Below the pieces are notes generated by a model, which did no database searches, had not been told where the DNA came from, and saw only the letters and a program-made list of their open reading frames with translations. A DNA stretch of 60,226 nucleotides, filler included, from Jimgerdemannia flammicorona (Eukaryota), in NCBI GenBank assembly GCA_003990765.1. It is 3 parts of 3 records of this genome, joined end to end, with 100 filler letters (N's around TTAATTAATTAA, not from the genome) between each part and the next. Parts side by side here need not be neighbours in the genome. Positions count along the whole stretch, not along the records: positions 1 to 20,015 come from RBNJ01001780.1; 2 more parts are not named here. One strand, written 5' to 3'. Shown here one piece after another: positions 309-51,501 of this stretch (its first letter is position 1; each line of letters starts with the position of its first letter). The translations under genes and the position numbers were made by a program.

Positions 309-799
309 TTAGGAATATGAATCAAGAGAATTAGATATTTGATTATAGTATCTAAATCTAATTTCTAATATAGTATAGTCTTATAAATAGCAGTCATTGT
401 TATTTTGCAATTATTAAAGTTTTCATAAATGTTAAACTCTTTACAGATGTTGAAGATTTTGTAGATGTTAAACTTTTGACAATTATTAAAGTTTTAGCAA
501 ATATTAAAAGATTTAATACTTGTAAAAAGTAACTCATAAGAAATATAGTCATAACTTAGCCACCTTATAGCTAGCAAACTTATATAAATATTCCAGTATC
601 TAGAGTAAATAAACCTCAGATTGAAATAGTTAAAAAAAAAAAAAAAAAAAAAAGCAAAGGAACTAGTAAGTCTGTAGGCAGATACACTTCAAACTCACTC
701 ACTTCTATATTCTGAGAACTCTGCAGAGTCAAAGAAGATTAAGTTTCCAAGATACAGAAATCTGACATACTTCTATAGTTATATGTCCACTATATTACA
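309..799 (+). repeat. Gy-A 5' LTR (first ~18 bp missing)
   Basis: Aligns with 6521-7004; ends ...ttaCA at 799; TATA-like tatataaata at 581 and aataaa near 608; followed by a decayed PBS (tagtattcattgac, compare tggtgcccattggc in Gy-B). Confidence 0.9.
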
Positions 800-3900: not shown

Positions 3901-4900
3901 CAAATTGGCCTCACTGAAGCAGCAAGTGAAAAGTCAGCCTTCATCACTCCAGATGGAACCTATGTCTATCTGCAAATACTATTCAGAATGTACAATATCT
4001 CTATAAGCTTCTAGTAAATGATGAACAAAATCTTCTATTATAATATAGAAAGATGGATAATGGTTTATGTAGATGATGTTACATATCATCTATAGAAAGA
4101 TAGCTGAAGAACATCTGCAGTATATCCAGTAGATGATAGAAAAGCTAAGACAATATAGTCTTTATATCAAGCTCAAGAAGTGTAAGTTTGTGGAAATTAA
4201 GATTATCTATCTTGACCATATCATTAATTGAGATAGAACACACACAGACTCCCTCAAGATTCAAGCAGTAGCAGTATATCTAAGGCTCACCACAATTACT
4301 GAAGCCTAAGCCTTTATAGAACTCACCTCATACTACTAAAGATTTATCAGAGGATTCTCCAATATTGTAGGTCCAATCTACAAACTCAATAAGAAAGATA
4401 TCAAGTTTCAATAGACTGGCAGACAACAAAAAGCATTTAATGAACTTAAGGTCAGACTGACCCAGGCACCCATCCTCAGAAGACCTGATTGGACTCAAAA
4501 ATTCATCCTACAGACAGATATAAGTACTCAAGGACTAGGAGCAGTCTTGGCTCAGAAAAAAAACAAGGTAGAATATGTTATTACATATCTAAGCTGAGGA
4601 ATCTGAGGAGCTAAAAAAGAGTATAAATTTTATAAGTTGGAATATCTTATAGTTATCTAGACTGTAGAGAAGTTCCACTACTATCTGGTAAGAAAACACT
4701 TTACCATTCAGATGGACCACTCAGCTCTTACTTGACTACTGACCACTGAGTAACCCAAATGAATCTATGCTAGATAGATAATAAAGTTGCAAGCCTATGA
4801 TATAACTATTGTGCACTACCCAGAAAGAACCAATGCTAATGTAAATACTCTCTCATAGATACTCCAAAGGACTTCCAACCAATAAATCAATTATAAATAA
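913..4900 (+). pseudogene. Gy-A gag-protease-dUTPase-RT-RNase H polyprotein pseudogene
   Basis: CCHC knuckle CYTCGEEDHYSYKC ~1684; decayed protease IID(TG)A ~2310; dUTPase KTRSSLARSE ~3135; RT SPWASPVVLV and YVDD ~4066; RNase H FILQTD ~4502; many stops. Confidence 0.9.
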
Positions 4901-6083
4901 GGAGTTCTACTATAGAATCATCACCTATCTGAGATAGCAAAAGATATCCCAATATCTAGAAGAATAGATACAAATAATTATCAATAGAACATGGAAACAA
5001 TTCAAGACTAATAGAGAGATACTGAAGAAAGGAAAACTATTAGTTATATTTAAATACAAGAAAAAGTAAGTAATGAAATCAGTATATGAACTTGGCTATC
5101 TAGGAGAAACAAATACATAAGATAAAGCAAGAATAATAATGTAGTAGCCAGAAATAGAGAAAGATATCAGACAATTTGTCAAGATCTATAACAAATATTA
5201 GAAATAGAAACAAAACTAGCGAAATCAGACCCCAGGATCAGTATACATAGAATCAGTACCATTTGTATATATTGCAATAGATGTAATTGGCTCTCTACCC
5301 TTAACTTTGATTAGCAACTAATATATTATAGTCATTGTAGACCTTTTCATAAAATGAATAGAGATAGGATTTCTCAAGAAAGCTAATATATAGTCAATTG
5401 CTGATTTTTTCTATAAAGAAATTATCTATCAATTTAAGACCCCAGTACAAGTAACTATAGACAGAAGAATAGAATTTGTAAACCAGTTCTTTGAAATTCT
5501 CTACAAGAAGTACAAGATCCAGTATATTTGGACTACAGTATACTACTCTTAAGGAAATAGATAAGCAGAAAGGACTAATAAAACTCTTAAGAATATCATT
5601 GCTAAGATCTGCAATAACTATAAAAATTGAGATCACTATCTGTCAATAGCATTATCTGCTCTTCAGAATATCCAATCACAAAGTACTCATTTTATCTCTT
5701 GAGAGATACTATTCAGAGAAGAAAGTTCTCAAGAAACTCTATTATTCAATAGAGATACTATATAGAAATATATAAATACAGAGATATGAAGACTACATCA
5801 AATTAGAAAGAATGCTGAGAATTATATAACTAAGGTACAGATACTACAATGGAATAATACAGAAAAGATTCACAAGTCTCTGAAGATTATTAAGATAGGA
5901 GATAAAGTCTTAGTATATCAGAATATAATAGAAGCTTTATAGTTACAAAAACTGGAGTCTAAGTGGGAAGGACCTTATCTGGTATAAGATATAAAAGGAA
6001 CCACCTTTTGGTTATGAAAACCCTTAGCCACAATCATCCCTACTACCATTCACTGAAACTAACTTAAGAAGTATCATGGCTAA
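4893..6083 (+). pseudogene. Gy-A integrase (separate +1 reading frame)
   Basis: Starts at ATA (ATG in Gy-B) NKEFYY; HHCC remnant, IAIDVIG and AERTN catalytic motifs, KWEGPY; ends KKYHG-TAA at 6083; no chromodomain. Confidence 0.85.
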
Positions 6084-6507
6084 CTAATAGAATACTGCCA
6101 CAGCTCTCAAGATCATCAGTACTATACAGTGAGCTATAGAAAGACAATAGTATACTACTGAGCCACTGAATGGAAGAATCCTTTGATAGTATATAGAGTA
6201 TAGTTCAGATATACTTATCATAAATACATATCACACTTTAAAGCCTATCAGAACCAAATTGTACTAGGTCTCTTATGCTCAGATCATAATTACTGAATAA
6301 GTAGTCAATAAGATATTTAAGAATAATGAGTCAGCTCTAGCCCATCTTTGTAGAGTAGTTCCAGGAGACTTTGGATATATCAAAAGATACTACTGGGAAT
6401 ATGTAATGATACAAATTATATAGTACAAGGAGATACAAATTATAGAAGCTTAGAAGTTTGAATAGGATATTTCAGAGATGAATAATCTATTCAGAAGGAA
6501 GTTGTGA
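6076..6507 (+). pseudogene. Gy-A accessory ORF3 remnant (~143 codons), unknown function
   Basis: ATG overlaps the integrase stop; one frame to the LTR edge with only transition-type stops; contains VVNKIFKNNESALAHLCRVVPGDF, similar to the Gy-B LTR ORF. Confidence 0.65.
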
Positions 6508-7004
6508 TGGTTGATCAGAATTAGGAATATGAATCAGGAGAATTAGATATTTGATCACAATACCTAAATTCAATTTCTGATATAGTATAGTCTTACAAAT
6601 AGCAGTTATTATTATTTCACAATTATTAAAGTTTTTGCAAATATTAAACTCTTTGCAGATATTAAAGATTTCACAGATATTAAACTTTTGGCAATTATCA
6701 AAGTTTTAGCAAATATTAAAAGGTTTAATACTTGTAAAAAGTGACTTATAAGAAATATAGTTATAACTTAGCTATCTTATAGCTAGTAAACTTATATAAA
6801 TACTCTAGTATCTAAAGTGAATAAATCTCAGATTGAAATAGTTCAAAGCAAAAAGAAAGTAAAGGAACTAGTAAGCCTGTCGGCAGATATACTTTGAACT
6901 CACTCACTCCTATATTCTAAAGACTCTGTAGAGTCAAAGAAGATCAAGTTTTCAAGATATAGAAATCTGATGTACTTCTACAGTTATGTGTCTGCTACAT
7001 TATA
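6503..7004 (+). repeat. Gy-A 3' LTR
   Basis: Starts TG after purine tract agaaggaag; direct repeat of 309-799; terminal CA decayed to TA. Confidence 0.9.
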
Positions 7005-7254
7005 TTATATAGTGTAATAGTGACTCCAGAATGATGACATCAGCACAGGAGACAGCCTTTTCTTGCAAGTCACCAGATTGGAGCACAAGAAGATCATATG
7101 GCATACAAGATGAGCAATGATAACCAACTGTGAGTTATTGTGACCACAGTACAAGCATCTTGAAGAATATAAAAGAAGGATCAAGAAACTGCAGTAGCAG
7201 CAACCAACAAGAACCATCAATCCCAAAATAGCTCAAAGACTTACCATAAACAAA

Positions 7255-8073
7255 ATGCCTGCTGCCTGCCAAACCTCAAGATCAAGGAATTACCAAGGTA
7301 TCTCAGTCAAGGAAAGAATGTTCCAAGACATCAGGAGAGCCATGGAGACCCACTCAAGAAGGACTCCTAGTGTCAACCTGAGTACTACAGACCCTTATCA
7401 CTTCATTCTCTACTGCCATGAAATAGAAACAAGGATCACCATCGCTACCAAATACCTCCAAATGTGGCAGGAGTACAAAATAGGAAACCTCCTCTGTCAA
7501 GAGTTCCCACAGGCCAGTACCCAAGAGCTACAAGATGCCACTCCCATAGATATATGTAAAATAAGGACAGCTAAGAAGATTTATCAGATCTTCAGACATG
7601 CATCATGGTCGATCCCCAACTTGGAGTATATTAGAATCTCAGACTTCAGAGACCTGTCATCTTGCTGTATTAATGCACTAAAAGCCAGGGTGGCTACAGA
7701 AGTCCAGTTCACTATCACTCTCAACAGTGAAGAAGTAGAAGACTTCTGGCACCCTATCCTTCAGGACAACTCAGACCAATTCCTACAAGGATTGATCTCA
7801 GTATTCCAAGGCCCAAGCATCCAGGTTAGACCTCCCCAAGACCCCACATTTGTTCCCTATTTTGTGGAAGAGAACCTTATAGACTGGAGAGCTCCAGATC
7901 TTGTTCCTAATTTCCCCGCCACAGCCATATGTGATGACATCATCAGCGATGATGTCATCCCATGTGACATTGAAGTATGCGAAACGTGCAACCTACATGA
8001 CAAGTTTGCAGATCTCATCTCCTTCAGTGATGATGATGATAAAGCCCCTATGATCGTGAACTTTCTGCTCTAA
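7255..8073 (+). CDS. 272-aa accessory protein of unknown function inside the putative LTR U3
   Basis: Uninterrupted ORF; the same frame continues upstream to the LTR edge through transition-type stops; similar to ORF3 remnants of Gy-A, Gy-C and Gy-D; acidic C-terminus. Confidence 0.7.
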   Translation: MPAACQTSRSRNYQGISVKERMFQDIRRAMETHSRRTPSVNLSTTDPYHFILYCHEIETRITIATKYLQMWQEYKIGNLLCQEFPQASTQELQDATPIDICKIRTAKKIYQIFRHASWSIPNLEYIRISDFRDLSSCCINALKARVATEVQFTITLNSEEVEDFWHPILQDNSDQFLQGLISVFQGPSIQVRPPQDPTFVPYFVEENLIDWRAPDLVPNFPATAICDDIISDDVIPCDIEVCETCNLHDKFADLISFSDDDDKAPMIVNFLL

Positions 8074-8085
8074 AAGTTCTTTGTT

Positions 8086-8215
8086 ACACTGGATAATGCC
8101 AGCACTGGTATTCTTATATAACACTAGATAATGTCAGCACTGGTATTCTGAGGTGATGCAAAATTATTCCAGCACCGGTATTTTGATGTGACACTAAATA
8201 ATGCCAGCATCCTGA
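8086..8215 (+). repeat. About four degenerate tandem copies of acactggataatgccagcactggtattc upstream of the TATA box
   Basis: Directly visible; enhancer-like position in the LTR. Confidence 0.75.
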
Positions 8216-8557
8216 ACCTATACAACCATCAGTGCCAGTCCTGGAACTTAGTAGTTTTAGTTATTGGAATTTATATTTAACTTTATATCTTAGCAACTAT
8301 TAAATTATATTTTATATAAATACCCCTCTTATTTCCTCTGAAATAAAGTCAGTTCCTCTCAGTACAATATACACACTTCCTTGTAAGCAATCTAAGAGAT
8401 AACAAGACAGTTAAAGATAAGAAGTTTGAGGACTATAAGACCTTAGGAAGGTACTCTAATAAGAACTTGCTTATAACAAACTTAAGTTAGTCTAAGAGAT
8501 ATACCTTGAAGAGAATCTGGTATATTTGAAGGACTCAGCGACTACTACATGACAACT

Positions 8558-8571
8558 TGGTGCCCATTGGC
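8558..8571 (+). promoter_or_regulatory. Gy-B primer binding site (tRNA not assigned)
   Basis: tggtgcccattggc 3 nt after the terminal CA; TGG pairs with tRNA CCA. Confidence 0.7.
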
Positions 8572-8674
8572 TAGTGATTCAAGATGAATCCCTCACTTTC
8601 AAGCTGAAAAATGAACAACCCCCACAACAACTACCCTGACTACAAAAGTCACCCCTGCAAGAATTCAAGACAAG

Positions 8675-11600
8675 ATAGAAATGTATCCCCCCACATTCTA
8701 TGGATATACTACTGAAGAGTCAATCCTGACCTTCATTGAAGACTTTGAACAATTTGCTGCTATATGAGCCCTTGGTGTGGATGCTCAATTGGCCCTTCTA
8801 CCAGTTAGCCTCAGAGGACCTGCTAGAGATAAGTTCAATACAGCCACCATTGCTGATGCTGGTGCAGCTAAACTTACCAATATGAAGGTCTTCCTCAGAA
8901 AAATATATTATACTGAAGAGATCAAGTAAGCTCTCAAGGATCAACACAATATTATCTGCCAGAGACTTAGTGAAGATCTCAACTTATTCTATACCCGAAT
9001 TTGCCACCAGATTGTCTTGGCTGGCTATGATGACTGCCTCAAGGAACAAATAGTGGATTCAACCTTCCTCAAAGGAATTCACCCTGAAATTACCCTAGCA
9101 ATCTGGTCTACTCTAGCTGCACTGACCTTTGATCAGAAAGTGGTCTTTGCACAGAGATATTGGACTACCAGACATCCTGCCGAACACTCAATAGAGAAAA
9201 TAACTGGTATCAAGATGAAGCCATCAAAGCCAACTAGTATCTTATCTACCACAGTCATAAACAGACAACCAACTCCACCTACCCCCAAGATAGCCAAAGT
9301 TGATCCAGTGGAAGAACTCACCAAGCAGTTTGCCAAGATGACTGTACACCTTGGTGATGTTGTCAGAGAAGTCCAAAGCACTAACAGGAGACCAGTGCAG
9401 AGATTTGCAGCTACTACAGAAGAATACAATATCACATACTTCAGATGTGGAGAAGAAGGCCACTATGCAAAGAGTTGCATAACTAAAATAAGATACAAAG
9501 CCCAACCAAGCAATGCTAGCAGAACCAGAGAACAAACCAATGCAGTAGTCATTGAGGAGATTGGTGACACTAATGATAAAGAATACTATGAGGAGCTCAA
9601 ATTCTACCCTGCTACTGAAGGTACCAGAACCTGGTCCAAGCCCTATGACAAGAAGAGCAACAGCAAGCCAGTTGGAAGACCAAAGAAGACCCCAGCTGTC
9701 ACTATTCAAAGTAAGACCTAATCTGAGGAGATTGATCAAGACATGGAGTTAGACGAAGCTGCCCACCAAATTATTGAAGGCACTACTCCAGTCTCAAGAG
9801 AAAGCAAAAGCAAGAAGGAACAGAAGCTGCATAAGACCAAGATCCACCAGTATGATATCTACAAGGACCTCAAGGAACAGAAGGTCAATGCCACTTTTGG
9901 ACAGCTAGCTGAAGTCCCTGCCTTCAGATAGTAGTTGAGAGTAGGACTTGCAACTACTGCTAAGAATCAAGAGTACAAGATTGTAAAAGCTCACAATGCA
10001 CAAGAAGAATCTGAGAACTCAGGTGAAGAATCTGAAGATTAGTGCAAGACATCAGCCTATACCCCCTACCAGATCGAAGACTATATCTTTGATGCCATCA
10101 TTGATACTGGTGCTGGAGGATGCCTCATGAGTAAGAAGGTAATTGACTATCTAGGTTGGAATATTGAAGAGTCCACCAAGATGGTCTATGTTACAGCAGA
10201 TGGTATATGAGCTACCCCCCTTGGTAAAATCTGAGAAGTCTCTATCAAGATAGGAGGAGCTACCATCCCAGTAGATGTGATTGTTACAAGCACCACCAAC
10301 TATGACATCCTCATTGACAACCAATGGCTTCACAAGGCCAAGGCCATTATTGACCTCAATGCCCAGAAGATGCAGATCAACTACAGAGGAAGAAAGGTAC
10401 AAGTCTCTATCAATGTCCACAAAGGAGTCCTATCAGATATGGAGGAAGGAGATGAAGATACAGAGGTCTTCATGCACTCAGTGAACAAGAACAAGAGCAA
10501 GACACCCAAGCTCACAGATGAGCAGTGGTATAACAAGATCATTGATGGGTATGCCCCTCAAGGAAGATGCCCCCATGGTACTAGGATGTACTACTCTGAA
10601 CACCTGAATGACTGCTGGCTCTGTATCAGTGAAGTCAGGAAAATCTGCCAATAGAAACATGAGCAAGAAGCTGCTGAAGCAAAAAGGAAAGCCAAAGAAG
10701 ATGGCCAGCCTCCAGAGCTTCAAGCTAACAGTGACAATGAGGAGGAACAAGAATCAGACATCACCCTCAAGGTCAAGAAGTTTCACCCTGAAGCCAAGAT
10801 CCCAGAATATAAGACTGAAGGAGCTATAGAAATGGACCTTGCCAGCATTCAAGATGCTACCCTCAAACTACAGACCACCACCCTACTTGGCACTGGAATT
10901 GGAGTCAAGTTACCAGAAAACCATACTGGAATTATCAAGACCAGGAGCAGTCTGTCCAAAAGTGAAATCTCAGTTGAAGGAGGAGTAATTGACCCTGATT
11001 ACACTAGCGAGATCTTCCTCATAGTCAGAAATCACAACCACACCACCCCCTTTGAAGTCAAGAAGCATGACAGAATTGGCCAGATACTGATCCATGAAAT
11101 CAAGAAGCCCAAGATCATAGAAGCCATCAAACTTATCAAGACCAAGAGAGGAGAACAAGGCTTTGGATCTACTGGAAGAGGAGCCTATGCCGCAACTAAG
11201 ATTACTGAACTTGAGCACAAGAAAGACAAGGACCAGAACAAGCACACATATATCATTGGAGAAAACTTTCCCCTGGAGGAACAACTTCTCAAGATCCTGT
11301 ACCAGAACAAAGGAGTACTTACTACAGACTTCAGGAATATCCACAATCAAGAACCCAAGTACTACTATGAAGTTGATACTGGCGATACCAAGCCCATCTA
11401 CCAGAAAGCTAGACCCATACCACCTGCCTACAGAGAGTGGCTGCAAGCCAAACTCAAGGAAATAGAAGAAGCTGGAATCATCAAGCAAGCTATCAGCCCC
11501 TGGGCCTCGCCCATTGTCCTAGCCCCAAAGAAAGGAAGCAAGCCTGGAGAGTTTGCACTAAGACTCTGTATTGACTATAGGAAGCTCAATGCTATCACCA

Positions 11601-12697
11601 AGAAGAATAGGCAGCCCTTGCTGAATATTCAAGAAATCCTTACCACCCTTGGAAGCAAAGCCAAATACTACACCACCTTGGATCTATTCTCAGGCTTCCA
11701 TCAGATCAGTCTCACTCAAGATGCCAGTGAGAAATCAGTCTTCATCACACCTGATACCACTTATATCTATCTGCAAATGCCATTTGGAATGTGCAATGCC
11801 CCAGCAAGTTTTTAGTGAATGATGAACAGAGTCTTCAGTAATGAGATTGGAAAATAGCTCTTTATCTATGTTGATGATGTGATCATCTTCAGCAACACTG
11901 CATGAGAACATATCAATCATATACAACTAGCCCTCAAGAGGCTCAAGGAGCATGACCTCTACATCAAGCCCAAGAAATGTAAGTTTGTAGCTCAAGAAAT
12001 TGCCTACCTAGGACACCTCATCAACCAGACCAGATTTCACACAGACCCCATGAAGATCAAGGCTGTTGTAGTCTACCTGAGACCCAGAATAACCACAGAA
12101 GTCTATGCCTTCCTTGGACTGGCCAGCTACTACAGAAGGTTTATCAAAGGATACTCCAACATTGCAGCATCTATTTACAAGCTACTGAAGAAGGAGACCA
12201 AATTTGAATGGACCAAGGAGTGCCAAGAAACCTTCAATAAACTCAAGACCAGATTGACCCAAGCACCTATCCTCAGAAGACCAGACTGGAACCTAGAATT
12301 CATCCTGCAGACAGATGCGAATGCTATAGGACTTGGAGCAGTCCTAGCTCAGAAGAAAGATGGACATGAATATGTCATCTCCTATGTAAGCTGAGATACC
12401 TGCAGAGCAGAACAGAACTATGAGTTATGCAAGCTTGAATACTTAGCAGTAGTCTGGGCAGTAGACAAGTTCCACTACTACCTAGCTGGAAAACACTTCA
12501 CCATTCAAACAGACTATTCTGCTCTTATCTGGCTATTCCACACTCTGAACCCCAAAGGAATATATGCCAGATAGATCTATAGGCTGCAAGAGTATGACTG
12601 TACTGTCAAGCACCACTCAGGAAAGACCAATACCAATGCCGATGCACTCTCAAGGATACCCCGAAACACCCCCATCAAGATTATTCAACATGAATAA
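8675..12697 (+). pseudogene. Gy-B single-frame gag-protease-Cys/His module-dUTPase-RT-RNase H polyprotein
   Basis: ORF pieces 9017, 9743, 10277, 10832 and 12050 share one frame; knuckle FRCGEEGHYAKSC; IIDTGAGG; SPWASPIV, LDLFSGFHQI, MPFGMCNAPASF, YVDD; FILQTDA, NADALSR. Confidence 0.93.
10768..11175 (+). other. dUTPase domain between protease and RT (Gy-B)
   Basis: Five trimeric dUTPase motifs: (A)xxMDL, RSSL, GGVIDPDYTSEI, DRIGQ, RGEQGFGSTG. Confidence 0.92.
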
Positions 12698-13172
12698 GGA
12701 GCTATACTATGGATTAATCAGCTATCTTGAGCAGCAGAAGATGCCCAATCACCTCAAACCCTGGACAATCACCATCATCAACCAGACTTAGAAACAGTTT
12801 GAATTAGATAACACTATACTCAGAAAAGGAGAAAAGCTAGTAATACCCAAACACAAGAAGTATCAAGTAATAAAGGAAGTATACAAGCAAGGACACTTAG
12901 AAGGAACCAACACATATGATAAGGTAAGAAGAACCATGTGGTGGCCCAAGATGGAAGAAGACCTGTGCCAATTTGTCAAAGGGTGTGATAAGTACCAAAA
13001 ACAGAAACAAGATCAGCAAGACCAGACATCTGGGTCATCAAGAATTGAGCCTATTTTCTTCCACCACATCACAATAGATATCATTGGACCACTACCAGTA
13101 ACACTATCAGGAAACCACTATATTATAGTTATTGTAGACCTCTTCACCAAATGGATAGAGGCAGGAGCATTA
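12690..13172 (+). pseudogene. Gy-B integrase N-terminal part (separate +1 frame, own ATG)
   Basis: MNKELYYGLISYL; WWPKMEEDLCQFVKGCDK; ITIDIIGPLP; VDLFTKWIEA; then LINE sequence. Confidence 0.88.
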
Positions 13173-16100
13173 GTGTATCTTTCTCCAGTAACATTCAGAT
13201 TATACAACCTTTGGAAGACACTTACAACATCATTTTTGGAGAAAAGAGACTAACAACATGGCAACTGACAGACAATCTGAGGTGTGTACTGGGCAGGGTG
13301 GCACAAGCGCTTTCAAATGGCAGCAGATAAGGAGGGGCCCAGGCCTGGGGGGGAGCATGAGGGGGCTGCTGGCAGGAGGATGTGGAAGAGAAGAGTCTGG
13401 GAGAGCAAGCTTTGTGGAGATGGTGAAGGGGAGACAGCAGGTATCAGGGCTGGAGGCCTGGCTGAGAAGGGGCAAGGAGACTGAGAAGGTGGTAGTGCAT
13501 GGTAGAGTAGCCCTTGGAAAGGGGGGCAGTAGAGCTGAGGGAGTAGTGGCTGGGGGGAGTGTGACTGCTGATGGTGATGGAACTGCTAATTTGGAAAAAA
13601 ATCCAGATATGATAACTGTTAGTAAGGCTAAGCAGCTGAGGCTTAGAAGACAAGGAGATTTGGCGGATGGCATGACAGGCCTGGTGGTGGCCCCATTACT
13701 CAAAAAATTGATCTCAACATTCATGGTTACACTATACTTCTGGGGCTTAGTAGTGATGGTGAAAATGGTACTAGGGCTTATTACTAAGTAGATAGCAGGA
13801 GCCATGTCAGTGAAGTTTTTGAAGGGACTGGAGGGTGTGGAGGTGGGTTTTGAGGAGGCTGAGCCACTGGAGGAGGCATTGAAGGTCGGGTTGGTGGTTG
13901 GGGAGGTGTGTGTTCTGATGGCACAGTATCTGAAATGGAATCCGAGGGTGGTCCAGCTGCTGGTGAAAGGAGTGTCCATGGTGACAGCAATAGAGACAAG
14001 AAAGAGAGTTGAGGATGTCATAGCTGAGTATAGAGAGGTAGTGGATATTGGATTCAGGGTCTGGGAAGGGACCTCACTTAGGACTGGGGATATAGATGTG
14101 AGGATTCAGCTGGCTGGGAAAGAAGCTACTGGGAAGGCAAGGGACTGGCCTTTGGTGATGGTCTGGAGAGTAATCTTATATAAGGTGACAAGGGTGAAAG
14201 GAAGTGAAAAGGAGGAAGAGGATTTATTGGAAGCACTGAAAGAATTGGATGGTGCCATGGAGTAGCGAGCAAAGGCTTAGAAGGCTTTCATGGAGTCGAT
14301 GCACCTGGTGGTGGTGGATGGAAAGAGGATTCGAGTGGACAAGGTGCAGTGAGAAAGGGCTCAGGGGCATAAGCGACAGAAAGATCTGCTGGCTAAATTG
14401 GAGACCAGACCACAGGAGGATGTGAGCAAGATGATGGGTGCAGAAGGGGCCAAAGCGAGTATCTGGGCTAGTGAGAGGAGTGGAAATGCCAGGGAGGAGA
14501 CAGGGAAGGCAAAGGAGGTGAAGATTGTTGACCTATATGCTAATAGCACCTTGGAGGTTTGGGATGAGGTCTGGGAGGATTCTCCCACTCTCTCTCCTCT
14601 TATCAGGCAAGGCCCAGCTTCCAGGAACAAGATAGTGGAGAATGTGACAATGCTGGGGACTCATTGGGTAAAATTCAGCATTCCAGAGGTAATGGATGGG
14701 GAACATGTGGTGGTAGCTGGGGAGGAGGAACTGGTGGATATCCCAGAGGTATAGGATGAGGCTACGAGTGCTGGAGCCAACACTACAATGCTGGAGAGTG
14801 GGAGGCCAGTGACCCCTGGAGGGAAGGAGGTGGGGAACCTTCTTTGGATGTGTAGGATGATGAATAACCTGGTGGCAGAAGAGTTGGGAGAGGTGGACTT
14901 GCAAGTGATGGGTGATAAGCACTGGGTGCAGATTTTGCAGGGGGATAGAGTGATGATGGCACTGAAGGCAGAAATTCTCATGGTGTATCTGGAGGAAGAA
15001 GGGTATGAGGTGGACAAGGAGCAGGAGGTGGAGATGGCCATTGTCGCTGGAGAGAGAGCTGAGTACTGTTGGAACAAGTATCATAGATTGCAGCTTTGGC
15101 AGGAGACTTGCATTGAGTACCAGGAGGAGTTTGAGGAGAAGGCGGATGGGGAGATGAATGAGCTGTTGGCTGGTTTGGAGGCTCAGAGGGCTGAAGAGGA
15201 GGAGGTGATGGCAGAACATAATCTGAATATGGCATAAGAGGAGATGAGCATAGAGCAGTAGAGATCAACTGATAACAAATCGTATTTCATTATGAACAGT
15301 ACAACTAATATTTTTTTTATGAATGTGAATGGGCTATGGAGCACTATTAGACATAGGAACATTTTTATTTGGCTGAAGGGATTGGAGGCCAATCTCTTCC
15401 TCTTGCAGGATATCAGGTGCAAGAATGACAATGATAGGATAGAATAGACAAAGGAATGGGGTGGCATGGTGATTTGGAATGGCAAGATCAGGATTCTGGT
15501 CTGGAAAGGCAGAGAGGAGATTAGAGATGTGAGAAGTTGGGAGAAGAGGCTGGTCTGGGGTAAATGGATTCGTGCAGGCTGGGAGCTAGTTACAGTTGGC
15601 TCCTATTACTGCCCTGCCATCAGGGGGGAGTGGGTAGATTGGGTAAAGAGTCTCTAGGAGAGTGGGATCCTGGCAGAGGCTGGAGTAGATATGCTTGGGG
15701 GAGATTTCAATATGGTTCAGGATGTACAGATGGACAGAACTGATGGAGAATGGGGTGCTGAAAGCAGGAGTGGGGGGCTGGTGATATGGAAGGAAGTCAA
15801 AAGACTAGGAGCACTGGTGAATGCTAGTAGGGAGTACTGGGGGGATAGGAGGATATATATGCATTGGGCTGAAGGCCTGGGGACAAGGATTGACTGGGTT
15901 CTGATGGCCACTTATTGGGGCCGAGATGTTTAGAAGTCACTGGAGGTGGAATGGTGTCTATGGTCGGATCACTGGAGTCTTTTGAGACAGGGGTACTTTG
16001 GGGGAAGTGGGGATGGGCCTGGACATTAGCACCTAAATTTCTCTTTGTTAGATGATGAGTCTCGGTGGGAGGAGTGGGCTAAAGACATTCAGCTGAGGGT

Positions 16101-17173
16101 GGAGAACTGGTGGCAGGAAGGTGCCTCAATTGGGGTTCAGTGGATGAGGATGAAAGAGATGGCCAGAATGTACTGGAGTGAGGCTGGCAAGATGGCAGGG
16201 AAGCAGCAATGGCAGAGAGTGTACTGGGCTTCTACTAAACTGGCTAGGCTTCTGGATAAATGGGCAAGACTGGTGATAGTGGAGGGAGAGGAAGACTGGA
16301 GAGTAATGAGGGCAAAGATAGAGGTTGGGGAACTACAACAGGTGCTGCAGGAAGAGGAAGAGGTGAGGGTGCAAGGCTTAGTGGCATGGCTTTGTTGGCA
16401 GAGGCTGGAAGAAGGGGAGAGGCCTTCCAAGTTTCTCTTGAGGACTCTTAGGGTGAGAAGAGTATAGCAATGGTGGGAAGGGGTACTTGACTCTGATGGT
16501 GTACTAGTACATGGTATACAGGATATTCTCAGATCACTGAAGGAGTGATGGAGTGGATTGTGGAGTGAGGAGGAGGGTGGAGTGGATGATACTACCATTG
16601 ACCAAATATTGGAGGATTGGCACCCACTATAAGTTGCAGGACTAGGTGACCTGGTGATGCCTGTAAAGGAGGATGAGATCCACTAGGTTCTTGCCACAAC
16701 AATCTTGGGAACAGCACCTGGGGAGGATGGCCTACCCTGGGACTTCTGGAAGTAAATGGTTGGAGTCCCAGGTGTGATGGGGGAGTTAATGGTATTGTGT
16801 AACTCTATATTGCAGACAGGGAGATGGGTGGGAGAGCAGGATCTTGGGCTGGTGATACTGCTTTATAAGAACAAAGGAAGGCAAGAGAATTGGAAGAACT
16901 GGTGGCTGATAATGTTGTTAGATATGGACAGAAAGTTGGTAACTAAGGTGGTAGTCATGAGGCTACAGAAGGTAGCCCAGCAGATTGTAGGGGTTGAGAA
17001 GAGGGGATTTGTGGGTGGTCAGCTCATTAGGGATAGCATAGCCTGGGTACATGGAGTTATTGAAGGGGCTAGAGCCTGTGGACTGGATGGGCAACTAGTC
17101 TTCTTGGACTAGGAGAAGGCTTATGACTGAGTGCAATGAGTCTGGCTGGTGAAAGTATTGGATAGAATGGGAG
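13173..17173 (+). mobile_element. LINE copy A (L1/Tx1-like): intact 5' end, ORF1, APE endonuclease and start of RT; interrupted by hAT
   Basis: 5' motif atctttctccagtaacattcag shared with other copies; ORF1 from ATG 13258; ORF2 from MNSTTNIF at 15292; LGGDFN, SDH, APGEDG, LD*EKAYD. Confidence 0.92.
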
Positions 17174-17269
17174 TAGTGCTCTGAATGAGTCAATTCAAAT
17201 CAAATCTGGATTTGATTCATCACATGACAGTTTGATTTGAATCTCAAATCCAAAGCCATCCAAATCAAC

Positions 17270-17610
17270 TCAGATTTAATCCGAATCACCCCATCCAAAT
17301 CGCCCCATCTGAATCACCCATCCGAACCACTCCAATCTGAATTACTCAATCTGAATCACTCAATCTGAATTGCCCCATCTGAATTGCCCCATCTGAATCA
17401 CCTATCTGAATCACCCATCCAAACCACCCCAATCTGAATCACTCAATTTGAATCACTCAATCCAAATCACTCAATCTGAATCACTCAATTCGAATCCTCT
17501 AATTCGAATCCTCCAATTTGAATCCTCCAATTTGAATCCTCCAATTTGAATCCTTCAATCTGAATCCTCATCTGAATCCTTCAACTAAATTCTCCAATCC
17601 AAATCCTCCA
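17270..17610 (+). repeat. Tandem ~13-bp subterminal repeats (ccatctgaatcac / tcaatctgaatcac / ccaatttgaatcct)
   Basis: More than 20 degenerate units directly visible. Confidence 0.9.
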
Positions 17611-20115: not shown

Positions 20116-20736
20116 GCGCGTTGTTCGAAAACGAACAACCCAGTAATGCTAAGCACTCAAAGGGGGAGCTATCCTTCTGGGGGATCTGTAGGGATGGAGG
20201 GGAAATAGAAGAGATGGCAAGAAACGTTGAAAATTTTGGTGGGTTTATTGACTGCATCAAACTGTGACGTCACTATAAAATATATACAATTCTGACCACA
20301 ATTGTTGTTTTGAAATATTAATATATTCTTTATTAATTTTATATTGTTTTATTTAATGTATTATAATAGAAATATTATTATTTTATCTTTCTTATTTTTA
20401 ATAATTATCCTATTATAAATTTTTTTTATTTTCAATTTCTTTAGATTGAATGCTTCATTACTTTTAATATTCTAATCAATATTAATATTTTAATTATTAT
20501 TCTTACTATTATCTTTTATATTATTTTTCAAACAATTATTACATCTTAATAATAATAGTGAAGATAAAATATTAGAAATTAATTTTGAAGCTTCAAGAGA
20601 TAATAATAAAATATATCTACTTTAAAGATATATATAAATAAAATTATTACTAAACTATATAACTCTAATTAAATATCTTATATATTAATGTTTCTTAAAT
20701 GTTTCTAACAATATATCTCTATTAGTTAATATGTAT

Positions 20737-21388
20737 TGTAATATAGCAAATGTGTAACTGTGTAGTATATCAGATTTCTATATCTTAAAAACTTGATCTT
20801 CTTTGAATCTATAGAGTTCTTGGGATAAAGGGGTGGATATGTATGAAGTATATCTGTCTGCAGACTTACTAGTTCTCTTGCTTTCTCTTTGCTTTGAACT
20901 ATTTTGATCTTAGATTTATTCACTCTGAATACTGAAGATATTTATATAAGTTTACTAGATATCTTTTATATTAATTTGCAGTCAAATTTATTTGCAAAAA
21001 AAATTGAATTAAAATTCATTTTTATTATCAAATATTATGTCAGAAAAAAATTAAAATACTATAATTTTTGAGATTTATAACAAAGATAATTTTTAAAAAT
21101 ATTAAATCTTTTGCAGACAAATTTACTTATATCTGATTAAAATATAAGAGATAGAGAGACTAAGTTATAATGATGTTTTCTGTGAATCTCTTTTCATCTT
21201 TTAACATCTACAGAAGATTTTGATAATTGCAAGAATTATAATATCTACAGAATCTTTGGCAGTTACCAAAGTTTTTTATATTTGCAAAATATAACTACTA
21301 CTTATATGGCTAAGCTATATTTGGGAATTGGATTCAGATATTGTAATCTAATATCTATTTTTCTAATTTATATTTCTATTTCATAACA
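20737..21388 (-). repeat. Solo LTR related to the Gy-A LTR, split by a MITE
   Basis: Reverse complement aligns with 6503-7004 on both sides of 20963-21150; TG...CA ends. Confidence 0.8.
20963..21150. mobile_element. ~190-bp AT-rich MITE
   Basis: Termini cttttatat...atataagag; inverted subterminal gcagacaaattt motifs; interrupts the solo LTR; reverse complement of 31492-31684. Confidence 0.75.
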
Positions 21389-36704: not shown

Positions 36705-39700
36705 ACATCTTTCTCCAGTAACATTCAGGTTACATAACTTTCTGGCAATACTTACAACACTATTTTTGGAGAAAAGATACTAGTATCATGGCAACCAATG
36801 AGCATTCTAAGGTGTGTGACCCTGGTGTATTTGACTGCAGTATGTGAGGAGGGGCCCCAGCTTGAGAAGAGGCATGAGGGGCCTACTGGCAGAAGGACAT
36901 GGTAGGGGAGAGGGCAGTGCTGACAGAGAGGGTGAGCTTCTTGGAGAAGGTGAAAGGGGGTCAGCAGAGAGTTGGGCTAGAGAGTTGGCTGAGGGGGGGT
37001 AAGGTGATGGGAGAGAGAGCCAGAGTAGTGAGACTGGTGGTGTAGTAGCTGAGAGGGTGACTGCTAATGGGAGTGTGATGGACAATCTGGAAAAAAATCC
37101 AGATGGGACTGCTGATAGTGTACTGAGTAGTGGGGTGGGCATGAGGCCTCTGATGGTATAATGGGACTGGTGGTGGTACTATTACTCAAGAAGTTGATCT
37201 CAAAATTCGCAGTCACCCTGTGCTTCAGGGGCTTAGTAGTGATGGTGAAAATGTTTCTGGGACTGATTGTGAAGCAGGTGGAAGACACAGCTTCAGTTAA
37301 GTTCTTGAAGGACCTGAAAGGGGTGGAGGTGGGCTTTGAGGAGGCAGGGCTACTAGAGAAGACACTGAAGGCTGGGTTGATAGTGAGGGAGGTATGTGTC
37401 CCAATAGCATGGTGCTTGAGATAGGACTCCAGAGTGGTGCAGTTCCTGGTGAAGGGAGTGTCTGCAGTGACTGCTGTGGAAACAAGGAGGAGAGTTGAGG
37501 AGGTCATGGCTGAATATAGAGAGATGGTCAATATAGAGTTTAGGGTCTGAGAAGGGACCACCTTTGGAACAGAGGATATTGATGTCCAGATTCAGCTGGC
37601 AGAGAGAGAGGCTACTGGCAGGGCATGTGATTGGCCTTCAGTGATAATGTGGGGAGCTTTTGTATGTAAGGTGATGAGAGTAAAGAGGAGTGAGGAGGAG
37701 GAGGAAGACCTGTTGGAGGTGCTGGAGGAGCTGAGTGATGTGGTAGAGTGAAGGGCAAAGTCTTGGAAGGTGTATGTGGAGTCAATATACTTCGAGATTA
37801 TTGATGGGAAGCAGGTCTGTATTGACAAGGGGCTGTGGAAGAGGACTCCAGGTCACAGAAGGCAGAGGGAGTTGCTGGTGAGTCTGGATGTAAAGAAGAT
37901 AAAGGCTGCTGATGGTAGTGAGGATGCTGAGGGAGCTTTGGCAAGTGTCTGGGCTGGGGGACAATGGGAGAATTTGGAGGTGGGTCTGGAGGAGGCCCAG
38001 AAGGCACTAAGCAAGGACTCATATAAAAAGTATGTTTGAAGTCTGGGAGCAATCTCCTACACCTTCCCCTCTGATGAGATGAGGACCAGCTGCAAGGGGC
38101 TAAGCAGCAGAGAATGTATTCATGTGTGGTATACTTTGGGATTCCTGAGGTGGTGAAAGGTGGACAAGTGGTGGCAGTTGGAGAGGAGGAACTGGTAGAT
38201 GTCCCAGAGGAGGGGTGGAATGAGACTGCAAGTGTGGGAGAGGCTATCTCAATGCTGAGTAGTAGATGGCCTGCGACCCCTGTGGGAAAGAAAGTGGGGA
38301 ATCTACTGTGAATGTGCCAGATGATAAATAATCTTATAGTGGAGGGGCTGGGAGAAGAGGACCTGAGAGTGATGAGTGATGAGCACTGGGTAAGGATCAT
38401 ATATGGTGATAGAGTGGTAGAGGTGTTGAGGGAGAGATACTGGTGGTTTTTCTGAAGGAGGAAGGGTATGAGCTGACCAAGGAGAGGGAGGCTGAGCTGG
38501 TGGTTATTGCTGGTGAGCAGGCCATTTACTGCTGGGGAAAGCATCATAGTTTACAGCTCTAGCAGGAGGCCTGCCTGGAGTATTGTGAGGATTTTGAGGA
38601 AAGGAGGATGGGGAAATGGCCGAGTTATTAGAGGGATTAGAAACCAAGAGGGCTGAGGAGAAGGTGGTGTCTGCTAAATACAACCTGGACTTGGTAAGAG
38701 AGGTGAGGGATATGGAGCAGTACAGGATGTGTTTTCAACTTTATAATATTTCTTATAAACAGTACAATCAACATTTTCTCTCTCAATATGAATAGGTGAT
38801 AGGGTTCATATCGGTGTCAGAACATTTTTGCTTGACTGAAGGAACTGGAGGCTGATCTCTTTCCTTTGCAGGATATCAGATGTGAGGATGATTTAGATAG
38901 ATAGGAGTGGACTAAGAAATGGTGAAGAGAGGCAGTATAGAAAGGCAAGATGGGGATTCTGGTGACTAGAGGGGGACTTGGGCTCATTGACTTCCTGAAG
39001 AAGTTGTACTGTCTGAGAGCATGGTGGCTGAAGAGGGCTGTTGAGCTAGAGGGTGGCAGCTGGGTTCCTCTGTTGAAGAAAGTCTGGAAGATGAGGTCCT
39101 CTTCAAGAGGATCCACAGGAGATCTACTATCCTGGTGAGGCTTCAGAATAATGAGCACATGTGGTATAAGGGCTTCTGGTGGGGAGTCACTGATGGGGTG
39201 CACTGCATAGACATTCATTGGCAGAGAGGTAAAGGAGAAAGGTATTGGGACCCAGTAATGTAGAGTGCTGCTGGGAGGTATTCAACTCAGAGACTTTGAT
39301 ATTAGTGCTAGGGTTGAGTGCTACAGTAAATTGGGGTAGGATCTGTTGCCTAGTAGATGGCAGTTGGTAGGTATTGGTGAAAAATGCAACTGGAACAGAA
39401 TATGGAACAGGAGTGCTGAGGTTCGGCAGTGGCTGCCCCCAAAGTATTAAGTGGTCTGGTGGTACATGTTGAGGAGAAATGTTATACTCAACTTTTGCAC
39501 TGGCCACCTAGTGGAAGGGAGAACATTTGACTGTGAGGAGTGCTATAATGTTGGACAGGAAGGGGGTTTTTTACAGATGTCTGAACATTGGCTAGGGGAG
39601 AGCAAGGTGCTCAGTGATTTCTAGATAGTGGTTGGGAAGAGATTTGATATTATGTGGAGGGGAGATGGTGTGAGGAATCAGTGGGAGGATTTGCCAGATA

Positions 39701-50201: not shown

Positions 50202-51501
50202 AAAACATTATAGGTCTAATGATCTTTATGAATGGAATTCTCCTGAATATTGCCCAGTATGTCTGTACTCTAGATATCAGAAGATCTGAGGAATAAGTAG
50301 ATATAGTCTAAGGATTCTTTGATATCAGATAAGGAACTACCTGGAGTGATTATAACAAGAAGGATGACAAAAAAGACATCCTGGTCAAAGCCCTGCAAGG
50401 ACTCCTCCAAGGACAGAAGAGATCTGAAGAAAGAAGACCAGCCAAAGAAAGAAAGAAGGACAGAAGTGAAATTCAAAACTTCAGCTCTAAGTTGGATCAA
50501 TTGGTTGGATAGATTAAAAAACTCACCACATGTAAAAATTGGAGTTATTAACAGAACAATAGAGGATATCTACTACAGAGCAACCAAGGTTATCTACTAA
50601 GAGATAATAGGAACTATCAGTAAGAAGAAAGAAGATACTCTATCAGAAACAGAGCCCAAGTCTAATGCTTTTACTGTGGACAATTAGGACACTATATCAC
50701 TGAATGTAACAACAAAAGAAGTGATCAAAGAGACTCAGAACCACCAAACTGAAGGAATGAAACCCAGTACAAGAAGACTGAAGCTCACCCTGTTGAAGAA
50801 TTTAAGGAAGTGACCTAGACTTATACTCAGCCAAAGTCAGCACTCAAAAGATAGTTTACCCAGTAGAGAAGAGAAAGAGACCTATAGGAAGGCCATCCAG
50901 AAATACTAGCAGAAGAATTTAAGAGAAAGATGAAGAACATAAAGAGGAGTAAGTAGAAATACCTCTCCAGTCTCTCTTATCTTTTATCTCTAAGATAAAT
51001 GAGCTGCCCCCAGAGGATGAAGAAATAGAGCAAAAAGAATGGGAACCTACTACCCCAAAACTCAAGAAGAAGTATATCCCAAAGATCATATCTAGAGATA
51101 TCTATAATAAAGTCTGGCAAAAGATTCAAGAAGTCAAGATGGAAGTTCCTCTCCTGTAGTTCCTGCAACTGATACCAGCTAGAGTCTAAAATAAATTATT
51201 GAGAACTACCAGATCTAGTACTGGTCAAGTACCAATTCTACAGCAAGAACCAGCTCCCACTCCTATCCAAGCTATAGAGAGACATGACAGCACCTACCTA
51301 CATAGATATATTGGAGGACAAAAGGTGAAAATCCTCATAGATATAGGAGTAGCTATCTGTATCATTGCCAAATAATTCCTGGATATCCTCTAATGGCTCA
51401 TTGATGGACCATCCAATCTCAGCATCATAGTAGCAGATAGAGCCTGAACTCAACCTCTTGGAAAAGTATGAAACATCACTATCTCCCTTGGATACATTTA
51501 G

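Follow-up and report, generated by a model that had tools for sequence, protein, structure and literature searches.

The two gypsy-type elements Gy-A and Gy-B, which lie in a 60,226-nucleotide stretch of DNA from Jimgerdemannia flammicorona (GCA_003990765.1; hereafter the window), are decayed members of a dUTPase-bearing Ty3/gypsy lineage in which the integrase (IN) forms a separate cistron that is probably translated by coupled termination-reinitiation. LTR retrotransposons and retroviruses make their Pol enzymes as one polyprotein, and enzyme dosage is set at gag/pol by frameshifting, readthrough or degradation; standard Ty3/gypsy elements are expressed from a single Gag-Pol ORF or with a frameshift or readthrough between gag and pol. 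The elements described here resemble the standard type in the PR-RT-RNase H-IN order, the LTRs, the Gag zinc knuckle and the single ORF from Gag to RNase H, but the break is found at RNase H/IN instead of gag/pol, which leaves IN outside the polyprotein. At the level of sequence comparison, three points can be regarded as established: the anatomy of this junction, the fact that a diverged clade with intact ORFs has conserved it, and the freedom of the arrangement from any one reading frame.

Two decayed elements with the same junction

In case of Gy-B, the domain order is PR-RT-RNase H-IN with an HHCC integrase, as in the related loci L004 and L025 (Pfam), which is the arrangement that defines Ty3/gypsy elements (Metaviridae). 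PR, dUTPase, RVT_1 and RNase H were all detected by Pfam in frame 2 (10235-12697; Table 1), and the protein P0016 aligns to 8798-12670 in a single frame (tblastn). The earlier note had described gag to RNase H as one frame, and one frame it is, albeit not an open one, as it contains 15 in-frame stops including the terminal TAA. ORF1 closes with ...NADALSRIPRNTPIKIIQHE and the TAA at 12695-12697, and IN opens in frame 0 at the ATG at 12690, reading MNKELYYGLISYL..., which gives the junction cATGaaTAA with an offset of +1. The IN frame (12690-13268) contains an Integrase_H2C2 domain (PF17921, E=7e-14) and shares 85% identity with the intact 433-aa IN protein P0001 and 83% with P0007 (tblastn). 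It is broken at 13177 by a nested LINE-like element that is foreign to the gypsy element, and as this insertion truncates Gy-B, no LTR pair of Gy-B was found in the window; other contigs carry the IN sequence on beyond 13166 without the interruption. Further copies of the nested element lie at 28237-24301(-), 36707-38963(+) and 57432-53412(-), and in a LINE-like copy at 51476-53926(-), RVT_1 is accompanied by a run of lysines coded by poly(A).

Table 1. Features of Gy-A and Gy-B in the window.
Feature	Position	Strand	Basis and remarks
Gy-A 5' LTR	309..797	+	direct repeat of 6521-7002, 86% identity over 489 nt
Gy-A RT-RNase H end	4088..4900	+	frame 2; tblastn of P0016 residues 992-1258; 15 in-frame stops
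Gy-A integrase frame	4893..6083	+	+1 relative to RNase H; start decayed to ATA 4893; 24 in-frame stops
Gy-A IN-to-3' LTR region ("ORF3" of the earlier note)	6076..6520	+	without coding signal
Gy-A 3' LTR	6521..7002	+	direct repeat of 309..797
Gy-B ORF1 frame	8768..12697	+	gag, PR, dUTPase, RT and RNase H share frame 2; Pfam, tblastn with P0016
Gy-B zf-CCHC (gag), weak	near 9440-9478	+	Pfam
Gy-B PR	10067-10378	+	
Gy-B dUTPase, between PR and RT	10790..11176	+	PF00692, E=1e-24, residues 186-314 of the 10235-12697 translation
Gy-B reverse transcriptase	11549..12016	+	PF00078, E=5.6e-31
Gy-B RNase H	12209..12595	+	PF17919, E=1e-32; PF17917, E=1e-28
Gy-B stop/start overlap ATGAATAA	12690..12697	+	IN ATG 12690-12692, ORF1 stop TAA 12695-12697
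Gy-B integrase N-terminal 162 codons	12690..13176	+	HHCC zinc finger 12843-13010, then core start; one in-frame TAG
Nested LINE-like element	13177..17174	+	breaks Gy-B IN

Gy-A is flanked by a pair of long terminal repeats, as expected for a Ty3/gypsy element. Its RNase H is in frame 2 and its IN in frame 0 (tblastn), P0007 residues 1-427 match 4797-6077 in one frame with 54% identity, and Pfam gives a weak rve match. The alignment of the two junctions spans 321 columns and is gap-free save for three end-gap columns; it places the TAA at 4898-4900 of Gy-A at the position homologous to the ORF1 stop of Gy-B, with Gy-A reading ATAaaTAA (4893-4900). The previously noted junction with its +1 offset is thus present in both copies according to Pfam, tblastn and gapless alignment, with the ATG in Gy-B and an ATA in Gy-A. 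The two differ by 64 transitions and 56 transversions over this stretch; judged by their alignment, they are diverged relatives rather than mutated twins. Classical RIP was rejected as the cause of decay, as the dinucleotide indices do not fit in the window copies (TpA/ApT 0.81-1.03; (CpA+TpG)/(ApC+GpT) 1.23-1.54). A ciliate code with TAA/TAG read as Gln was likewise rejected: with table 6 the ORFs come out no cleaner, and the standard code is enough to read relatives as intact.

A third coupled cistron, which had been postulated to start over the IN stop of Gy-A with the same geometry, was not recovered. The letters cATGgcTAA are indeed there (6076-6083), but the IN frame has 24 stops, of which the TAA at 6081 is just one (others are at 6054 and 6060), and the claimed ORF3 frame has 12 stops in the 148 codons of 6076-6519, compared with 14 and 11 when the two remaining frames are read. 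The region has no Pfam match, its Smith-Waterman scores against the ORF3 of relatives lie inside the shuffle range, and a profile built from that ORF3 had no match in the window, whichever frame was read. The stop-free frame 7198-8073 was rejected as ORF3 (hhalign probability 0.2%); it is also without a Pfam family.

A conserved separate integrase cistron in relatives

By themselves, Gy-A and Gy-B prove little, as both are decayed (15 stops in the ORF1 frame of Gy-B, at least 24 in Gy-A), and it is the comparison with relatives that reveals a separate, coupled IN cistron. A scan of metagenomes yielded 38 loci, 28 of which span the RNase H end and IN; together with L005, L018 and L024 they give 31 readable junctions. 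None of the 31 shows an RNase H-IN fusion, and no open RNase H-IN frame exists in the 28. Release of IN from a Pol polyprotein, the usual though not strictly defining state of Ty3/gypsy elements, is hence not what is seen here: in the window as in 28/28 relatives, IN has a frame or an ORF to itself. Its frame relative to ORF1 is -1 in 20 loci, +1 in four and 0 in four, and the tblastn match begins at the Met of the query in 25 of the 28.

The conserved IN N-terminus is opened, at 23 of the 31 junctions (18 distinct sequences), by an ATG positioned -7..+5 nt from the ORF1 stop, the background rate being 4.4% for an ATG at this distance from any stop trinucleotide that opens at least 90 codons. 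The close spacing or overlap of stop and AUG that marks termination-reinitiation systems is therefore found in Gy-B as well as in these 23 relatives. The layouts include ATGA, TAATG/TGATG, ATGnnTAR and TAGATG, and L013 and L025 share the layout of Gy-B with a TAG in place of the TAA (ATGAATAG). Between the RNase H motif ADALSR and the end of ORF1 there are anywhere from 3 to about 45 residues, and the stop nevertheless follows the IN ATG. Eight junctions fall outside the tight pattern: the ATG is at +33 from the stop in L016/L017, spacers of 220-370 nt separate stop and ATG in L020, L033 and L038, the junction of L034 is decayed, and L024 and L028 carry ATA where ATG is expected. Of the three coupled cistrons claimed earlier, what stands is a separate, stop/start-coupled IN; the third cistron in Gy-A does not.

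Several relatives have intact ORFs. L004 is intact, with an ORF1 of 1595 aa and an IN of 418 aa, L025 has an ORF1 of 1484 aa, the ORF1 frame of L029 comprises 1823 codons with one stop near the 5' end, and IN ORFs of 409-445 aa are present in L006, L009, L013, L014, L017, L021 and L027. A dUTPase between PR and RT was found in 6/6 loci that extend far enough upstream (L004, L025, L006, L021, L029, L010). In the IN tree, two fused outgroups stand apart from the split clade (support 95/95); an RT-RH alignment search of viral contigs gave just two distant fused elements, which were taken as outgroups. Junction types are mixed within the clade, with the ATGnnTAR (+1) sister to the ATGA (-1) group, and with L030 (TGATG, -1) adjoining L031 (TAGATG, frame 0).

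Protein databases give a similar picture. Among the 120 RT-RNase H relatives listed, an IN domain occurs in 0/8 Pol proteins with a dUTPase and in 54/112 without one, the latter and L001 and L002 being in the usual fused state. All eight dUTPase-bearing Pols terminate 3-45 residues past ADALSR, and six of them sit on contigs 6.6-11.9 kb long. For the family of the window, public data contain the intact IN proteins P0001, P0006 (415 aa, beginning MNKELYY) and P0007 (447 aa), which form one 90%-identity cluster. The N-terminal extensions of P0001 and P0007 are not RNase H but what results when the RNase H region is read in the IN frame, and the same offset must therefore be present in undecayed copies. 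Searches of viral and genome contigs with P0007 found no undecayed DNA copies of the same family. The closest lead to a named taxon for this IN is Mucoromycota, which is a lead only.

Could the break simply be a product of decay, i.e. an indel in a dead ancestor of Gy-A and Gy-B, with the TAA a mutated CAA? Both copies are heavily mutated, and the differences between Gy-B and other copies are nearly all transitions (contig pieces, 4 runs), which would agree with such an origin. However, the break is shared by relatives whose RNase H is 34-62% identical and whose ORF1 and IN are intact ORFs, the IN proteins just mentioned are intact, and fused RNase H-IN forms occur only outside the clade (L001, L002). 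The doubt about a mutated CAA is moreover irrelevant, because frame 2 of Gy-B reaches a TGA ten codons later anyway. The proposed check of the offset across copies came out in its favour: in 975 contig pieces (4 runs) with at least 82% identity, the single indel listed for 12300-13170 is a 3-nt deletion at 12736 in one contig, and none that alters or restores the frame is listed. Decay as the cause of the junction is thus hardly credible.

Mechanism of integrase translation

The proposed mechanism is as follows. ORF1 would be translated into one polyprotein, Gag-PR-dUTPase-RT-RNase H, and IN would be a separate downstream cistron with a conserved Met to start from (consensus M-[N/D]-x-E-L-Y-Y-x-L-[I/V]-x-Y-L), whose start overlaps or abuts the ORF1 stop in the form of AUGnnUAA/UAG in the sub-lineage of the window and of AUGA, UAAUG/UGAUG, UAGAUG and similar arrangements in relatives. 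The ribosome or 40S subunit that finishes ORF1 would then restart at the neighbouring AUG of the full-length RNA. Free IN would likely be produced below the amount of Gag-Pol, and it would need to reach the particle or the cDNA in trans.

What alternatives exist? A programmed frameshift, +1 in the family of the window and -1 in most relatives, would generate a Gag-Pol-IN fusion that is cleaved by PR. Counted back from the ORF1 stop, the IN frame does stay open for 149 nt in Gy-B and for 152 nt in L025, and +1 shifts have precedents, as they occur at a stop codon in antizyme and RF2 and at the gag/pol boundary in Ty1. According to the available text of PMC5911963, Ty3 uses a +1 shift at the same boundary. 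Among -1 loci, a canonical slippery heptamer lies inside the overlap in 5/19 (CCCTTTC in the close relatives L021, L027, L029 and L032, GGGAAAT in L012), and frameshifting may occur in the CCCTTTC sub-group of four; in the other 14 the heptamer is missing, and the overlap can be as short as 7 nt (L011), 19 nt (L022) or 25 nt (L030). A conserved shift site together with one frame relation, by which programmed frameshifting would be recognized, was not found, as close relatives show three frame relations including in-frame stops (L031, L016/L017), and a fusion protein would have no use for a conserved initiator Met. As the coupling is indifferent to the frame, termination-reinitiation is favoured over +1 frameshifting, and general frameshifting appears improbable. 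The earlier note had left stop-restart, +1 frameshifting and subgenomic RNA side by side; the first is now preferred over the second, and the +1 offset is not general, most relatives being -1 and some 0.

It is also conceivable, though rather unlikely, that IN is a separate cistron with its own RNA, spliced or subgenomic like retroviral env, or with internal ribosome entry, and that the adjacency of stop and start merely reflects tight gene packing. A conserved Met start fits this equally well, and so do the gaps of 30-370 nt between stop and ATG in L016/L017, L020, L033 and L038. Restart after an ORF of 4.5-5.4 kb, moreover, normally requires an upstream cis-element, and no such element common to the loci was found by motif and folding comparisons, which counts against restart here. 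The earlier note had proposed a search for TURBS-like motifs or pseudoknots upstream. The TURBS core TGGGA occurs in 3/20 loci and is not enriched near the junctions, the background being 0.15 per 100 nt, and in 14 loci the 110 nt that surround the junction have no greater folding stability than shuffled sequences (z -1.4 to +1.4). A hairpin with compensatory changes at 6/10 pairs exists in one sub-clade only and is absent from the family of the window.

A further point for this alternative comes from ORF3, which is conserved in relatives and would need another expression route as well, since its start precedes the IN stop by 26-122 nt in the four loci that are readable for both. In two other loci it starts about 80-124 nt downstream of that stop. 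This ORF3 has no Pfam match, a word-based protein search recovered its own cluster alone, and its AlphaFold model is helical (pLDDT 67) without a PDB match at E <= 0.001. Against a separate RNA or internal entry, neither predicts that the stop should track the ATG within -7..+5 nt at 23/31 junctions despite a tail variation of some 40 residues and changes of frame, and the pressure for compactness on LTR retrotransposons is presumably small. Coupled termination-reinitiation therefore remains the preferred reading of the junction.

Comparison with known restart systems

In the calicivirus RHDV, an AUGnnUGA overlap drives termination-reinitiation. Like the junctions described here, calicivirus and influenza B restart sites combine a long upstream ORF with a stop that overlaps or nears the next AUG (UAAUG, AUGA). 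They differ in that short 3' ORFs on subgenomic viral RNAs are translated with the help of UGGGA pairing to 18S rRNA, whereas UGGGA is not enriched at the gypsy junctions and the downstream gene is a retrotransposon enzyme of 410-450 aa. For the viral systems, the available text of two sources gives overlaps of 1-14 nt and puts the yield of the downstream product at between a few and about 20% of that of the upstream product (PMC5972666, PMC10275272).

A fungal host may be shared with the victorivirus HvV190S (AUGA) and the hypovirus CHV1 (UAAUG), for which the accessible parts of the sources describe fungal stop/restart after a long ORF without motif 1. It relies on the sequence or structure of about 32 nt lying upstream, or else on the protein of the upstream ORF (PMC5972666, PMC2699510). 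Overlapping stop and start after a long ORF and a fungal host are common features, the latter as far as the Mucoromycota lead goes; the differences are that these are RNA viruses with CP/RdRp or p69/ORF B, and that a junction hairpin is limited to one sub-clade of the gypsy elements. Among retrotransposons, the restart reviews name, in their available text, only the non-LTR elements SART1 (UAAUG) and LINE-1, which restart a second ORF at or near the ORF1 stop (PMC5972666, PMC10275272). There, the break lies between an RNA-binding ORF1 and the whole enzymatic ORF2, whereas the gypsy break divides the usual Pol of an LTR element, separating RNase H from IN.

Foamy viruses make Pol apart from Gag via a spliced mRNA, and the Dictyostelium element Skipper has a separate pro ORF. 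In both, as probably here, a retroelement enzyme is not fused to Gag and must be packaged in trans, but another gene is concerned, and in foamy viruses the mechanism differs as well. As to the dUTPase, PosPlaTy3-5 of Postia placenta and elements of Phanerochaete and Tuber also carry it between PR and RT, and compared by domain order alone they agree with Gy-B; the available text describes such elements as one ORF or two (gag, pol) and does not mention a separate IN ORF (PMC2864245).

Implications

In the literature searched, which included few subscription journals and not Repbase, no description of a separately initiated integrase in an LTR retrotransposon was found, nor a paper that combines termination-reinitiation with such an integrase. 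The comparisons point, with slightly better than even chances, to a Metaviridae-type clade in which translational control has shifted from the gag/pol boundary to RNase H/IN, and in which termination-reinitiation releases a free IN that has to join the particle or the cDNA in trans. This clade would apparently be common in soil eukaryotes, perhaps Mucoromycota, and together with the conserved helical ORF3 its elements would be polycistronic, with the dosage of IN set by the efficiency of restart.

If this is true, termination-reinitiation joins the expression strategies of LTR elements, and the question arises how a free integrase gets to the virus-like particle or pre-integration complex. The natural series of stop/start arrangements (ATGA, TAATG, ATGnnTAR, TAGATG, and spacers of 30-370 nt) would offer a view of restart after very long eukaryotic ORFs, and annotation pipelines that assume a fused Pol would mis-score such elements as defective.

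The integrase frame in the window and in undecayed copies

Two gypsy-type elements, Gy-A and Gy-B, lie in the first 20 kb of the window. Gy-B matches Gy-A in five blocks of 66-77% nucleotide identity at an offset of about 7755-7800 nt, and both are dead copies: in-frame stops number 15 in ORF1 of Gy-B (the Gag-PR-dUTPase-RT-RNase H frame), 15 in the RNase H of Gy-A and 24 in its integrase (IN), so that on their own they are no proof of a functional arrangement. Around the RNase H/IN junction the two differ, over an alignment of 321 columns, by 64 transitions and by 56 transversions, which makes them diverged relatives. The earlier note had described IN as a separate ORF joined to ORF1 by an ATGnnTAA overlap, and the Gy-B junction does read in this way: frame 2 is ...NADALSRIPRNTPIKIIQHE, followed by TAA at 12695-12697, and frame 0 from the ATG at 12690 is MNKELYYGLISYL... 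The alignment of both elements is gapless across the junction, where Gy-A has ATAaaTAA (4893-4900), and tblastn recovers the same +1 offset in each when the intact proteins P0016 (Pol) and P0007 (IN) are the queries.

The frame break is also present in clean copies. With the Gy-B IN fragment as query, a protein search detected P0001, an intact IN of 433 aa with 85% identity, which clusters with P0006 (415 aa, starting MNKELYY) and P0007 (447 aa). P0001 and P0007 are extended at the N-terminus by residues that come from reading the 3' end of RNase H in the IN frame and are not RNase H sequence, which means that the gene callers met the same break there; the extension is as long as in the window. 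Contigs aligned to 12300-13170 at 82% identity or more gave 975 pieces from four public runs (soil metagenomes and a coded organism). These pieces differ from the window nearly throughout by transitions, the single indel listed, in one contig, deletes 3 nt at 12736, none that changes the frame is listed at the junction, and no variant falls within 12690-12697 among the 40 best-supported ones (184 further ones exist). The runs that contain the sequence are mainly soil metagenomes; as no more than a lead to the host, stand-alone integrases of the closest Atlas cluster occur most often in Mucoromycota. In soil-metagenome run X1, 101 pieces are at least 99% identical to the decayed Gy-B copy over 12300-13170, and the same organism or a close strain was therefore present in that sample.

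Coordinates of features in the window and in related metagenome loci (L)
Feature	Position	Remarks
Gy-A LTRs	309-797 and 6521-7002	86% identical to each other
Gy-B	~8768 to 13176	
Gy-B Gag zinc knuckle (weak) and PR	within 8768-10210	frame 2; Pfam
Gy-B PR, dUTPase, RT, RNase H	within 10235-12697	frame 2; Pfam
Gy-B dUTPase, between PR and RT	10790-11176	PF00692, E=1e-24
Gy-B Integrase_H2C2	from 12690	frame 0; Pfam
LINE-like element, four copies	13177-17174; 28237-24301(-); 36707-38963(+); 57432-53412(-)	67-80% identity
RVT_1 and poly(A)-coded lysine run	51476-53926(-)	in LINE-like copy
ORF3	L004:6467-7159; L025:6567-7082; L026:3063-3782; L027:1678-2271; L021:4017-4373; L009:2436-3121	
Hairpin	L021:2760-2795, L026:1800-1835 and relatives	few nt 5' of TAATG/TGATG

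A clade with a separate integrase

Among the best 120 RT-RNase H relatives, eight bear a dUTPase. An IN domain is found in none of these eight versus 54 of the other 112, and all eight stop 3-45 residues past the ADALSR motif near the RNase H end, six of them on contigs of 6.6-11.9 kb. Two further gypsy Pol proteins (P0035, P0125), which have a NUDIX domain (PF00293) upstream of PR, also end shortly past RNase H, and judging from these ends the split may reach beyond the dUTPase clade.

When JGI metagenome contigs were scanned with an alignment of the RNase H C-termini of the dUTPase-bearing relatives, 38 loci of 34-62% identity were obtained, and in 28 of them both the RNase H end and IN are present (tblastn). 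None of the 28 has one open RNase H-IN frame, in agreement with the separate integrase claimed for the window, and decay as the source of the frame break appears very improbable. Relative to ORF1, IN lies in frame -1 in 20 loci, in +1 in four and in frame 0 after an in-frame stop in four, and in 25 of the 28 the tblastn match begins at the query Met. Two more distant viral-contig elements (L001, L002), serving as ordinary controls, have a single open RNase H-IN frame. The dUTPase was found in all six loci that extend far enough upstream. L004 is intact, with an ORF1 of 1595 aa (zinc knuckle, PR, dUTPase, RT, RNase H), an IN of 418 aa and an ORF3 of 230 aa; ORF1 of L025 has 1484 aa, that of L029 is a frame of 1823 codons with one stop near the 5' end, and an IN ORF of 409-445 aa is present in another seven loci. 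The ends of the L004 contig (1-140 and 8087-8226) repeat each other at 99% identity, a pattern consistent with a unit of 8086 nt that was assembled from LTR to LTR or is circular or tandemly repeated.

Coupling of stop and start codons and the possible route of integrase expression

Readable junctions number 31, namely the 28 loci and L005, L018 and L024, which have a short downstream stretch. In 23 of these (18 distinct sequences), an ATG lies at -7 to +5 nt, counted from where the ORF1 stop begins. As background, an ATG in that range that opens at least 90 codons accompanies 4.4% of the stop trinucleotides present in these loci. The coupled ATG opens the conserved IN N-terminus M-[N/D]-x-E-L-Y-Y-x-L-[I/V]-x-Y-L. 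The layouts are ATGA (nine loci), TAATG or TGATG (nine), ATGnnTAG (two; Gy-B has ATGnnTAA), and ATGn4TAG, TGAnnATG and TAGATG (one each). The remaining eight junctions fall outside this tight pattern: L024 and L028 have ATA in place of their relatives' ATG, in L016 and L017 an in-frame TAA precedes the ATG by 33 nt, the L034 junction is decayed, and L020, L033 and L038 have stop-to-IN spacers of 220-370 nt. In the sub-group of L019, L020 and L033, the ORF1 stop comes after ...ADFLSRLGY; in L020 and L033, IN is then reached across about 330-370 nt of AT-rich spacer, and the L019 contig runs out 37 nt past the stop. This arrangement is either a different solution or decay.

The ORF1 tail past ADALSR is poorly conserved, with lengths between 3 and about 45 residues, and still the stop tracks the IN ATG. 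In a tree of IN N-termini, the split clade stands apart from fused outgroups (95/95 support), and the junction types are intermixed within it: an ATGA group is the sister of the +1 pair with ATGnnTAR, made up of L025 and the Gy-B family, and L030 (TGATG, -1) stands beside L031 (TAGATG, in frame). Selection for termination-reinitiation would be expected to leave a conserved initiator Met and a juxtaposition that is kept despite changes of frame and tail length, as seen here, and we consider it moderately likely that the IN cistron would be expressed in this way, by restart at the ATG adjoining the ORF1 stop. A separate IN mRNA or internal entry, the main rival, would account equally for the conserved Met but leaves the tracking of the ATG by the stop unexplained, and we regard it as unlikely. 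Frameshifting that joins ORF1 and IN fits poorly and is more doubtful still, as the frame relation differs among loci, the overlap lacks a canonical slippery heptamer in 14 of the 19 loci in frame -1, and it is short (7 nt in the decayed copy L011, 19 nt in L022, 25 nt in L030). A CCCTTTC heptamer in four close relatives makes frameshifting possible for that sub-group only.

The stop-restart coupling proposed in the earlier note is thus favoured by the tracking of stop and start across frames, but a restart-promoting element common to the clade did not emerge. TURBS-like motifs were not borne out, the core UGGGA being not enriched (3 of 20 loci), and folding energies around the junction do not stand apart from those of shuffles. 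The missing UGGGA is not decisive, since, according to PMC5972666, motif 1 is absent where fungal victoriviruses and the hypovirus CHV1 restart at stop and start codons that overlap. In one sub-clade (L021, L026-L029, L022, L030), a hairpin with compensatory changes at six of ten pairs ends just 5' of the stop/start and is a candidate restart element; it is absent from the window's own family. The compensatory changes alter encoded residues too (G/P paired with F/W).

A third cistron in relatives

In relatives, IN is followed by a conserved ORF of about 170-240 aa (ORF3), which overlaps the IN 3' end where readable. It is homologous among L004, L025, L009, L021, L026 and L027 (blastp E 4e-5 to 1e-28, small database), gave no Pfam hit, matches nothing in the PDB at E <= 0.001, and is predicted by AlphaFold to be all-helical (pLDDT 67). 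Its start lies upstream of the IN stop by 26 nt in L004, 68 in L027, 71 in L021 and 122 in L009, so that the family does not share the tight geometry claimed for Gy-A. L017 and L013 have a downstream ORF, a candidate homologue of ORF3, about 80-124 nt past the IN stop. In Gy-A itself, stops are as frequent in the proposed ORF3 (6076-6520) as in the other two frames, and the region does not resemble the ORF3 of relatives, so that the three-cistron organization holds for relatives and is unsupported for this window copy.

Neighbouring repeats

Gy-B is interrupted at 13177 by a LINE-like repeat with three more copies in the window. The copy at 13177-17174 is nested in the Gy-B IN, as confirmed by contig loose ends at 13166 that carry on the IN sequence. 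GC skew in the LINE-like copies is very strong and strand-asymmetric (up to +/-0.48), in keeping with C-to-T decay on one strand. Directly after the nested copy lies a tandem array of about 20 imperfect 14-nt units (17276-17567). Between the Gy-A 3' LTR and the Gy-B gag, a stop-free frame of 291 codons (7198-8073, +) has no Pfam family and is unrelated to ORF3. Gy-A LTR-like fragments in reverse orientation (20730-21382, -), in a region of 20% GC, are probably a solo or partial LTR.

Relation to known systems

A dUTPase between PR and RT is known in fungal gypsy elements, which the available text of PMC2864245 describes as having one ORF, or two (gag and pol), in contrast to the separate IN seen here. 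The mechanisms closest to the IN stop/start are the restarts of calicivirus and influenza B and of fungal victorivirus (AUGA) and hypovirus (UAAUG), and, among retrotransposons, those of SART1 and LINE-1. The literature searched, with subscription journals and Repbase outside it, contained no joint report of termination-reinitiation, an LTR retrotransposon and integrase. These elements represent a Ty3/gypsy lineage in which integrase is a separately initiated cistron, probably with expression by restart.
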